Of a DNA stretch of 64,000 bases, positions 40,949-42,977 are shown in pieces. Position numbers and translations under genes: made by a program. The stretch lies in the NCBI GenBank assembly GCA_000004985.1, contig GG738855.1. One strand, 5' to 3'. The notes under the pieces were generated by a model, which made no database searches, was not told the origin of the DNA, and saw only the letters and a program-made list of their open reading frames with translations. Positions within the stretch are counted from its first letter, which is position 1, and the number at the start of each line of letters is the position of its first letter. Source of the DNA: Naegleria gruberi (taxonomy: Eukaryota).

Positions 40949-41911
40949 CTAATTGAAAATCTTCCAAATGCCTCTGATTGACTTTTGGTGAACAGCATAT
41001 GGAACCTCAAGAAGACCTCTCAACATTTTCATAATATCTAACCCCATTGTTAAACCGATAATACCAGCAATAGAACCCAATAAACCTGGAATATCTGTCG
41101 ATAGGACTTCATCAATAACTTGAACATCAAGCGTTCCATAAGAGACAGAGATAATAATATCTGCAGAACTGGCATTCGATATTTTGATTTGTGACAAGGT
41201 TGGCTCCCACAGTGTAGTTGAATTCCCATCAAGAAAGTTCTTTGTCACCTTATTCAGAGTATACATATTATCCTTGTATGGAGAAGCAAATTGTGTCTCT
41301 GCAAAAATGTCAGCTTCAGCAGCTATTTCATGGAATGAAATCTGAGCACCATATTTCCCTGCAGTAGGAGCTTTCATTTTAAAGTTCAATGATATTGATC
41401 CTCCAAATCCTGCAGTTGATGTTGTCTTAATACTCTTAATTTCATTATTAAGAAAATAACAATTAAATTTCAGTCCAGAAGTTACAATCTCCTTCTTTTG
41501 ATTTGTAATGGTTGTTGAAGACTTTACTCCAGAGCTGGAGTAAGAATAAGCTCCAGTAAAAGTAATATCACAATAATCACAAGCTTCGGAAGGAGGCTTG
41601 GCATTATAATTACAAATGGTCATCCCAGGAAATTCCATCTTATCCTGAGTGACATACGAGATTGTTGTTGTAGGCTGGTTTTTACTCTTCTCATAGGTAT
41701 CCGATACGTCATAAATATACCAGCCACTAAATCCTAGAAAAATCAACCAACCAATAATTGCGAAAATATCCCTTACTGCAAATTTCCATTTCTTTTTAGG
41801 AGCAGCTGGAGCAGAAATTTGTATACCTATTTTCTCTCCAACCTTTTCAACTCCTTCTACAAGAGTATGCACGGGAACAGTTGAATTCATTTTTTTAAGC
41901 ATGTAGTTCAT
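40949..41911 (-). CDS. Miniature ENaC/DEG/ASIC-family-like two-TM channel subunit (about 313-320 aa)
   Basis: A single ORF, with an alternative ATG at 41890 in an A-run context. TM1 is IFAIIGWLIFLGFSGWYIY, followed by EFPGMTICNYN (compare the family post-TM1 motif FPAVT.CN). A roughly 210-aa ectodomain follows, then IPGLLGSIAGIIGLTMGLDIMKMLRGL (compare [19 protein letters not shown]..E preceding and within TM2). Confidence 0.62.
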   Translation of the reverse strand: MNYMLKKMNSTVPVHTLVEGVEKVGEKIGIQISAPAAPKKKWKFAVRDIFAIIGWLIFLGFSGWYIYDVSDTYEKSKNQPTTTISYVTQDKMEFPGMTICNYNAKPPSEACDYCDITFTGAYSYSSSGVKSSTTITNQKKEIVTSGLKFNCYFLNNEIKSIKTTSTAGFGGSISLNFKMKAPTAGKYGAQISFHEIAAEADIFAETQFASPYKDNMYTLNKVTKNFLDGNSTTLWEPTLSQIKISNASSADIIISVSYGTLDVQVIDEVLSTDIPGLLGSIAGIIGLTMGLDIMKMLRGLLEVPYAVHQKSIRGIWKIFN

Positions 41912-42035
41912 ATTGTATTTGGGGTGTTTCTACAGAGAGTGTATGAACTTGAACATAAAAGCGGGAGATGAATGGCTTCTCGATTATGTTTATTAAATTC
42001 ATAATGTATTATATTACATTGTTGGTTATTAAACC

Positions 42036-42977
42036 TTAATTCAAAGCTTCATAGACCAGTCTGTGTTGTTTAGTTTTGACTGCTTCGAATATAATAAACC
42101 CAACTCTTATCATTTTTAGGAGATCCAGGCCGAACAATACACCCAACATACCAGCAATTTCTCCCATCAATTCAGTCCAAGTTTTAGACTCGAATTCATT
42201 TCTAGTTGTAATGTCCAATTTACCATAACCAACAGAAACCACAACTGTTCCATCAGAATAGTTAATTAATTTTACAGAAGACTTCACTGCCTTATAGAGT
42301 GTGTTATCAGTTCTATACTCGACTGATGTCTTTAATCTCTTAATGTTCTCTAAAGAGAGAGTGAAAAAGTTATCATCTCCAACTGATGCAAAATTGAACT
42401 TGGCATGGTCATTATCGACAGAAACACCTTCATCATAAGTATTGAAAAATACATAAAGACCAGCTCTTTTAAGACTATTAATCTTTGAGAAATCATCAAG
42501 TGTAAACTCAAAAGCAATTGATCCACCATATCCACTTTGATTTGATTTGTATTTTGATTTTCCATCTCCATTAAATGTAAAACACTGATACGTGTAGACA
42601 GTACCTGCCTGTGTTACTGTAATTTTTGATGATGAAAGAGTTTCAGTGCAACTCCCTCCAGGAATTGTGCATCCAGTAAAACTTAGTGCTGTATCTGGTA
42701 TTGATGAACAAAATGTTGTCTTGGGAAAGTTCAATGATGAATAAGAAGTGACATCCACTGATACTGGAGGATGGGTCTGAAGATAAGAGTAGCCAGATAT
42801 AACACTCCACATATAAACTCCCAACATTGCAATACTTCCTAGCCATCCGAAAATTACAAGAAATTCTCCATAAGTGTATCCATATTTCTTCTCAAGCTCA
42901 TCTCTTGCTCCTTCTCCACTTCCATCATCGGAATCTTCTTCTGCTCCTAAAACATCAACAGGTTGATCGGTGGTCAT
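42036..42977 (-). CDS. Miniature ENaC/DEG/ASIC-family-like two-TM channel subunit, tandem paralogue
   Basis: A single 313-aa ORF. TM1 is FLVIFGWLGSIAMLGVYMWSVI, followed by NFPKTTFCSS. It shares GYGGSIAFEF (GFGGSISLNF in the neighbour) and ELMGEIAGMLGVLFGLDLLKMIRV. Confidence 0.58.
   Translation of the reverse strand: MTTDQPVDVLGAEEDSDDGSGEGARDELEKKYGYTYGEFLVIFGWLGSIAMLGVYMWSVISGYSYLQTHPPVSVDVTSYSSLNFPKTTFCSSIPDTALSFTGCTIPGGSCTETLSSSKITVTQAGTVYTYQCFTFNGDGKSKYKSNQSGYGGSIAFEFTLDDFSKINSLKRAGLYVFFNTYDEGVSVDNDHAKFNFASVGDDNFFTLSLENIKRLKTSVEYRTDNTLYKAVKSSVKLINYSDGTVVVSVGYGKLDITTRNEFESKTWTELMGEIAGMLGVLFGLDLLKMIRVGFIIFEAVKTKQHRLVYEALN

Follow-up and report, generated by a model that had tools for sequence, protein, structure and literature searches.

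Tandem core-only DEG/ENaC-like genes in Naegleria gruberi with a G-L-D-x-x-K signature at the putative pore and profile-level similarity to PAC/TMEM206

When analysing contig GG738855.1 of Naegleria gruberi (NCBI GenBank assembly GCA_000004985.1), a stretch of 64,000 nucleotides, here called the window, was found to contain two adjacent genes for candidate subunits of a miniature channel of the DEG/ENaC type. Gene 1 (40949..41911, minus strand) is an intact open reading frame (ORF) of 320 aa when counted from the first ATG, and gene 2 (42036..42977, minus strand), an intact ORF of 313 aa, is situated ~125-145 bp upstream of gene 1 on the same strand. The two products are full-length paralogues with 27% identity (BLASTP, E=4e-30), in agreement with an initial annotation that had described two neighbouring same-strand paralogues of these lengths, and a tblastn search revealed no third family copy within the 64-kb window.

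The NCBI model of gene 1 begins at M8 (base 41890), and from M8 onward the product is identical to XP_002680073.1 (NAEGRDRAFT_64710, D2V787). This entry is named merely "predicted protein" while its public record already holds a precomputed PF00858 match; superfamily membership by automatic annotation is already known for gene 1. A look-up of the exact 313-aa product of gene 2 in a collection of 15 billion proteins (including NCBI and UniRef) did not find it, and gene 2 is therefore apparently missing from the NCBI N. gruberi reference protein set; the sole close match, which came from an ENA/Logan assembly, differs by one residue. Gene 2 differs from its counterpart in a second strain by 8 synonymous changes and 1 non-synonymous change, gene 1 by 2 and 1, and by this sequence comparison both genes are shown to be real and under purifying selection. 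Gene 2 thus looks unannotated in the reference set despite such selection.

Each protein contains exactly two hydrophobic segments (in gene 1 at ~42-70 and ~269-296, in gene 2 at ~36-62 and ~269-301), an ectodomain of ~195-205 aa, estimated initially as about 210 aa, and just 4 cysteines, so that the topology, the compact ectodomain and the scarcity of cysteines are as first described. The motifs quoted at that time (FPGMTICN, FPKTTFCS and GLD) were located at verified coordinates, as were the motifs of the second transmembrane segment (TM2), ...MGLDIMKM in gene 1 and ...FGLDLLKM in gene 2. The features of the two genes are as follows.

41678..41776, minus strand: gene 1, helix of the first transmembrane segment (TM1), residues 46-78, VRDIFAIIGWLIFLGFSGWYIY... 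(AlphaFold2 (AF2) helix and hydropathy)
41609..41632, minus strand: gene 1, post-TM1 motif FPGMTICN (family FPAVTICNWN, canonical FPAVTxCN) with the invariant C100
41447..41461, minus strand: gene 1, beta-ball motif C-Y-F-L-N with the invariant C151 and N155, aligned with canonical GNCYTFN
40985..41092, minus strand: gene 1, pre-TM2/TM2, residues 274-309, helix broken at 290-292 (AF2 and alignment to ASIC TM2)
41027..41044, minus strand: gene 1, putative pore signature G290-L-D292-I-M-K295, where ASIC has its belt G-A-S-I-L-T
40952..40984, minus strand: gene 1, conserved tail KSIRGIWKIFN, predicted to be cytoplasmic
42798..42866, minus strand: gene 2, TM1, EFLVIFGWLGSIAMLGVYMWSVI
42705..42728, minus strand: gene 2, degenerate post-TM1 motif FPKTTFCS, Cys retained, N-W-N gone
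42570..42584, minus strand: gene 2, beta-ball motif C-F-T-F-N
42072..42179, minus strand: gene 2, pre-TM2/TM2 including G283-L-D285-L-L-K288 (GLD at 42123..42131)

C100 and C151 form the sole cysteine pair that is invariant across the subfamily, and gene 2 keeps it as C90/C132. The pair sits at the position of the ASIC1 disulfide C94-C195 and is presumably bonded in the same way. The optional cysteine pairs of the two proteins are complementary: gene 1 has C111/C114 and lacks the family pair C121/C133, while gene 2 has the equivalents of C121/C133 (C103/C110) and lacks C111/C114.

A search with the Pfam ASC model (PF00858), as had been advised in the initial annotation, gave 40 bits for gene 1 and 27.4 bits (E=2.2e-6) for gene 2, both above the gathering cut-off of 23.6 bits. 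The model was also matched individually by 39 out of 40 selected small members of the subfamily described below, and by a gene pair in a metagenome (locus L001, see below). When the alignment of the small members was compared by hhalign with an alignment of 20 canonical hits the match reached 99.8% (E=6.6e-28) over 267 columns, running from TM1 to TM2, and two large canonical insertions were absent from the small proteins, one following FPAVTxCN (the finger) and one being the Cys-rich thumb. The AF2 monomer model of gene 1 (pLDDT 87.1, pTM 0.75) has helices at residues 46-78, 274-289 and 293-309 and, between the two TM segments, a beta domain of ~12 strands that corresponds to the palm/beta-ball scaffold; the ectodomain contains no helix of 4 residues or longer, and the finger, thumb and knuckle subdomains are missing. 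In the model the topology is that of two TM segments flanking an ectodomain, and both termini would be cytoplasmic. The initial annotation had named a missing ASC match together with a fold unrelated to this scaffold as grounds for abandoning the assignment, and on both counts the opposite was found; its suggestion of a minimal core fold agrees with the ~12 strands, the 2 TM helices, the lack of finger and thumb helices and the insertions absent in hhalign.

The two proteins and one metagenome homologue were combined in a profile, and a search with it against 1.84 billion cluster representatives retrieved 314 of them at E<=1e-3. Roughly the best 100 of the 314 are small protist-type proteins, mostly 280-400 aa long, and canonical proteins of 450-600 aa, aligned in two or three separate pieces, score no better than about E=1e-10. 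The claim that homologues outside animals are rare needs to be qualified accordingly. Word-indexed homologue searches with the single proteins gave almost nothing (2 and 1 matches), the family emerging only from the exhaustive profile search.

A total of 151 hits were aligned with hmmalign to the hidden Markov model (HMM) of the subfamily, and conservation was counted in 40 members. Among the hits covering TM2, 65 carry G-x-D (core-only) and 31 carry G-x-S (canonical). At position +3 a K is found in 57 of the 65 G-x-D hits, compared with T or S in 26 of the 31 G-x-S hits, and at +6 an R in 25/65 compared with an E in 24/31, giving the subfamily pore G-[LIV]-D-x-x-K-x-x-R in place of G-x-S-x-x-[ST]-x-x-E. 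The median full length is 336 aa for the first group and 495 aa for the second; the Naegleria proteins, with 313-320 aa, thus reach ~60-65% of the canonical median; the initial annotation had put them at roughly half the size of metazoan subunits.

In the HMMER comparison with sequences from PDB, 'GLLGSIAGIIGLTMGLDIMKMLR' of gene 1 was aligned to ASIC, which places G-L-D exactly over G-A-S; a check of the register against the ASIC chains aligned 'GLTMGLDIMKMLR' with the ASIC belt segment, and the same register was obtained from hhalign and from hmmalign of the 151 homologues. The G/S-x-S filter is accordingly not present in either protein, both reading G-L-D, and D292 is found in 32/40 members and K295 in 31/40 where canonical hits have S and T/S. 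The replacement of G-x-S by G-L-D that the initial annotation had seen in the pair is therefore real and a family-wide signature rather than a quirk of two genes, while its extent had been understated, since K at +3, R at +6 and the loss of the HG motif go with it. With D at the belt, K at +3 and R at +6 this is a coordinated triple substitution on one TM2b face, not a single swap, and the pore-lining face of TM2 is predicted to display D, K and R where the animal channels have S, T/S and E. The pre-TM1 HG motif was found neither in the two proteins nor in the N-terminal regions of the 18 small members listed, whereas 11 of 13 canonical sequences have it ahead of TM1, and the hhalign match starts after the HG column. 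Features retained in the subfamily are FPxVTICNWN and C-Y-x-F-N, the TM2 glycine ladder G279, G283, G286 and G290 (34-39/40) and a C-terminal ...F-N (29/40).

Compared with ASIC, ENaC and FaNaC (6ave, 6wth, 7yvb; ~450-700 aa) the Naegleria pair shares the two-TM topology, the post-TM1 FPAVTxCN, the beta-ball CYxFN, the pre-TM2 L-L-G-D/E, the TM2 glycine ladder and the discontinuity of TM2 at the belt. It differs in lacking the finger/thumb insertion, the Cys-rich thumb and the pre-TM1 HG, in its belt residues (G-L-D for the G-A/S-S of ASIC/ENaC, K for T/S at +3, R for E at +6) and in the conserved ...F-N C-terminus, which is a feature of the subfamily. The arthropod channels BRTNaC1 (8ymr, 431 aa) and PDPNaC1 (9jf7, 421 aa), found by sequence and fold searches, are short for the family but still more than 100 aa longer than the Naegleria proteins.

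When all PDB sequences were searched with the subfamily profile, DEG/ENaC chains were matched (ASIC5 at E=6.6e-20) together with chains of the proton-activated chloride channel PAC (TMEM206) from Xenopus (1.9e-10), bovine (8.6e-8), human (1.4e-7) and pufferfish (3.2e-5), the next unrelated protein following at E=0.03. DEG/ENaC and PAC have been described as being without discernible sequence homology (PMC7904269). For a closer comparison a human PAC sequence was confirmed as identical to 7jna_A, vertebrate PACs were collected, and 120 PAC sequences entered the HMMER search. With hhalign the profile of the small proteins matched the PAC profile at 89.6% (E=1.9e-6) over 261 collinear columns, compared with 1% and 37 columns for the canonical DEG/ENaC profile. 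With HMMER the same small-protein profile recovered 109 of the 120 PACs at E<=1e-3 (best 2.3e-11) in two collinear segments and without composition bias, whereas the canonical DEG/ENaC profile matched none of the 120 and reversed PAC sequences gave no matches to the small-protein profile. Disjoint halves of the alignment each recovered PAC (best E=2.2e-10 and 7e-9).

PAC/TMEM206/ASOR (PF15122; 7jna, 7ji3, 8h8d) resembles the subfamily in size (~350 aa), in this apparent profile-level similarity over the full length, in a post-TM1 'P-x-x-S-V-S-Y' motif and a TM2 'D/E-x-x-K' common to both, and a 12-stranded beta domain between two TM helices, as known from PAC, is present in the Naegleria model. 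HMMER aligns G-L-D-x-x-K with PAC A-A-D/E-F-A-K. K319, the lysine of PAC anion selectivity (for the roles of K319 and K320 see PMC7904269), has no counterpart in the subfamily, falling into an insertion in the HMMER alignment and facing M289 (M/L) in that of hhalign. Other differences are the absence from the subfamily of the helix-turn-helix insertion described for TMEM206, the absence from PAC of FPxVTxCN, CYxFN and the glycine ladder, and the distribution, PAC being described as conserved in vertebrates (PMC7904269) and the core-only proteins being found in protists. Membership in the PAC family is not claimed, because the reciprocal search with a PAC profile was weak.

In the literature searched no mention was found of NAEGRDRAFT_64710, XP_002680073 or D2V787, no findings linking Naegleria with ENaC/degenerin, and no description of a core-only subfamily, of the D-x-x-K(-x-x-R) signature, of the HG loss or of a sequence bridge to PAC. 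Studer and co-workers reportedly described an ENaC/degenerin homologue in N. gruberi in 2011 (Physiol Genomics 43:844). A BLASTp survey from 2023 covered Discoba, yet all of its candidates were holozoan apart from one alveolate and one stramenopile (PMC10507113), for which reason the core-only family was not part of it. The non-metazoan sequences of that survey, from Tunicaraptor unikontum, Cafeteria roenbergensis and Symbiodinium, likewise place the superfamily outside animals but group with canonical ASIC/ENaC (PMC10507113), unlike the core-only subfamily. Both the definition of the subfamily and its link to PAC appear to be new.

Further members were found at four or more additional loci in N. 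gruberi (at least XP_002680309, XP_002678414, XP_002672040 and XP_002682191), which gives this species at least 6 diverged paralogues, and in N. fowleri (XP_044558764 and the gene next to it). A member with a G-L-D belt and N at +3 comes from the malawimonad Gefionella okellyi. In other small relatives the belt differs, reading G-I-G in the stramenopile Platysulcus tardus, G-F-S in the euglenozoan Entosiphon sulcatum and G-V-G in TARA marine samples. A third pore variant, G-[VI]-G lacking the Lys at +3, is represented by P0077, P0090 and P0091 (TARA marine samples and Platysulcus tardus).

A same-strand tandem pair of 342 and 350 aa is located on N. fowleri contig VFQX01000053.1 (L004:6772-7875 and 8001-9264), in a neighbourhood different from that in N. 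gruberi, with a histidine kinase upstream and pseudouridine synthase and coatomer beta downstream. Locus L001 of JGI metagenome 3300002220, presumably from a protist, holds a divergent pair 74 bp apart, 7018-7926 (-) and 8001-9017 (+), encoding 302 aa with G-L-D and 338 aa with G-V-D. The adjacency of two diverged copies thus recurs in three genomes. In a rough neighbour-joining (NJ) tree gene 1 belongs to a Naegleria-rich clade that also contains the whole N. fowleri pair, gene 2 forms a separate long branch and the L001 partner falls elsewhere; the tree has no consistent two-type pattern and so does not show orthologous A and B subunit types across species.

Both genes of the N. fowleri pair have an intron directly before the TM2 G-I-D codons, where the window genes are intronless, and this intron is read through at the end of several metagenome gene calls (e.g. 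P0008, P0010, P0018). In the 1563-aa N. gruberi protein P0009 (XP_002672040) a C-terminal core-only domain is joined to an OTU protease domain and to EGF/NHL repeats like those of teneurin; the gene model probably results from a merger and does not represent a genuine fusion. When N-terminal extensions and fusions of paralogues were checked for functional hints, neither P0005 (501 aa) nor P0009 gave any.

Taken together we consider it probable that the products of both genes are subunits of a channel with two TM segments per subunit, gated by a ligand or stimulus and probably trimeric, and that they belong to a distinct, protist-wide, core-only subfamily of DEG/ENaC. In sequence and model each subunit consists of TM1, a palm and beta-ball of ~12 strands with few cysteines able to form disulfides, TM2 and a conserved amphipathic tail ending in F-N, and by analogy with every solved relative three of them would assemble. 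Three subunits would create an Asp ring at the constriction with Lys and Arg rings one and two helical turns below, and with such rings the pore would not be a Na+ filter of the ENaC/ASIC type. The expected channel would be cation-permeable, possibly Ca2+-permeable or blocked by Ca2+, and poorly selective between Na+ and K+. Cation permeation is favoured because of the acidic belt, the missing K319 equivalent and the effects of substitutions in PAC, where K319E alone makes the channel cation-selective and L315D makes it non-selective (PMC7904269). Gating would have to originate in the palm/beta-ball or in the membrane, through protons or through osmotic or mechanical load, since the acidic pocket of ASIC and the protease-sensitive finger of ENaC are absent. 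As the paired arrangement recurs in N. fowleri and at the metagenome locus, the diverged paralogues may co-assemble as a heteromer.

With regard to PAC, we tentatively propose, from profile comparisons and as a possibility that falls somewhat short of probable, that the core-only proteins of protists supply the sequence link that had been missing and that DEG/ENaC and PAC are homologous, both having arisen from an ancient channel with two TM segments and 12 strands, whose architecture the Naegleria pair would still display. The subfamily may then represent the common core from which animal DEG/ENaC and PAC/TMEM206 derive, the Naegleria proteins being essentially the bare shared core.

Several points weigh against these readings. 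The link to PAC is seen at the level of profiles, single sequences giving E of about 0.5; in the reciprocal direction a PAC profile of low diversity, limited to vertebrate sequences, reached at best E=0.01 and matched members of the small family only; and the Pfam model TMEM206 (PF15122) was matched neither by genes 1 and 2 at E<=10 nor by the 40 members at E<=0.01. The channel role, oligomeric state and current are predictions from sequence and model, and as the monomer model leaves the pore-lining residues unplaced, the D, K and R could equally give anion permeability or form salt bridges. Co-assembly of paralogues is speculative, because the NJ tree has no consistent A/B pattern, and gene 2, with its lost N-W-N and long branch, may encode a subunit that modulates the channel or does not conduct.

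The first of the other explanations follows from the similarity to PAC itself. If the proteins worked as anion channels in the manner of PAC/ASOR, anion selectivity would lie with the K295 and R298 rings in the lower pore, and D292 would be structural or pH-sensing. The alignment of G-L-D-x-x-K on A-A-D/E-F-A-K and the basic residues in place of the ASIC T at +3 and E at +6 fit such a function together with the profile-level match. We nevertheless regard it as unlikely: the selectivity lysine K319 has no counterpart, an Asp ring without its equivalent points away from anions given the behaviour of K319E and L315D, and DEG/ENaC scores are far higher than those of PAC both in the PDB search (E=6.6e-20 against 1.9e-10) and in hhalign (99.8% against 89.6%).

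It is also conceivable, but rather more doubtful, that the proteins are membrane-anchored surface proteins (receptor, adhesion or sensor) which have kept the DEG/ENaC scaffold and lost conduction, as two motifs essential for conduction in animals, G-x-S and HG, are lacking, TM2b is charged and amphipathic and a channel function is so far read from sequence and structure prediction. Against a loss of conduction stand the glycine ladder and the TM2 break at the belt, which is kept in the model, and the fact that every characterised DEG/ENaC and PAC relative is a channel; moreover the conservation of D292 and K295, the replacement residues, indicates that the segment equivalent to the pore is under selection and not decaying.

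That gene 2 could be a decaying duplicate or incipient pseudogene, leaving gene 1 alone functional, was considered in view of its degenerate FPxxTxCNWN motif (FPKTTFCSSI), its long branch, its Pfam score, which at 27.4 bits is the lowest among four small proteins tested, and its absence from the reference protein set. This is improbable, as the 313-codon ORF is intact, the differences from the second strain are 8 synonymous to 1 non-synonymous, and C90/C132, CFTFN, the glycine ladder and G-L-D-L-L-K are all retained; gene 2 even keeps the C103/C110 pair lost in gene 1, and the divergence of the two copies is thus complementary.

Lateral transfer was reportedly raised as a possibility for Naegleria by Studer and co-workers in 2011. 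A horizontally acquired animal DEG/ENaC gene, secondarily truncated in Naegleria and uninformative on the ancestral core, is very improbable even though lateral transfer has been suggested as one reading of the patchy non-animal distribution (PMC10507113), given that the core-only form with its D-x-x-K signature is also present in Gefionella okellyi (G-L-D, though with N at +3) and many metagenome clusters, that related small forms exist in Platysulcus tardus, Entosiphon sulcatum and TARA samples, that N. gruberi has at least 6 diverged paralogues, and that the family is nearer to PAC than the canonical animal set is, which is unexpected for a recently truncated animal channel.

The neighbours of the pair are unrelated to it. 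About 140 bp downstream of gene 1 lies an acetyl-CoA acetyltransferase (thiolase; 39615..40925, minus strand), an adjacency conserved in the second strain (L005), and the other neighbours are a NOPCHAP1-like protein (43283..43972, plus strand), a TPR-repeat protein (43969..45420, minus strand) and a multi-pass membrane protein without family match (38607..39446, plus strand). No operon-like clue to function was found among the neighbouring genes, the thiolase, NOPCHAP1-like, TPR, tRNA synthetase and RhoGEF genes all being of housekeeping type. The window as a whole is compact and gene-dense with ~33-38% G+C and no tRNA genes, and contains ORFs for a RhoGEF-PH protein (15373..17631), an isoleucyl-type class I tRNA synthetase (27009..30029) and a leucyl-tRNA synthetase fragment (59580..61637), as well as ORFs of 750-1000 aa without Pfam match (10313..12706, 19945..22182, 31926..34898, 34997..37813 and 55006..57585).

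A natural minimal DEG/ENaC protein of ~310 residues, made of palm, beta-ball and two TM segments, is a tractable object for core gating without finger, thumb, acidic pocket and HG loop, and the triple substitution of S, T/S and E by D, K and R constitutes a natural experiment on where selectivity is located in the fold. As one family profile joins two families of animal channels whose ion selectivities are opposite, convergence versus common descent becomes testable by phylogenetics and structure determination. If the proposed relationship with PAC is true it would run counter to the description of DEG/ENaC and PAC as sequence-unrelated and 'structurally convergent', and the D-x-x-K pore would be of an ancestral type kept in full by neither animal family. 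For Naegleria, including the pathogen N. fowleri, the finding adds a multigene family of uncharacterised putative surface channels.

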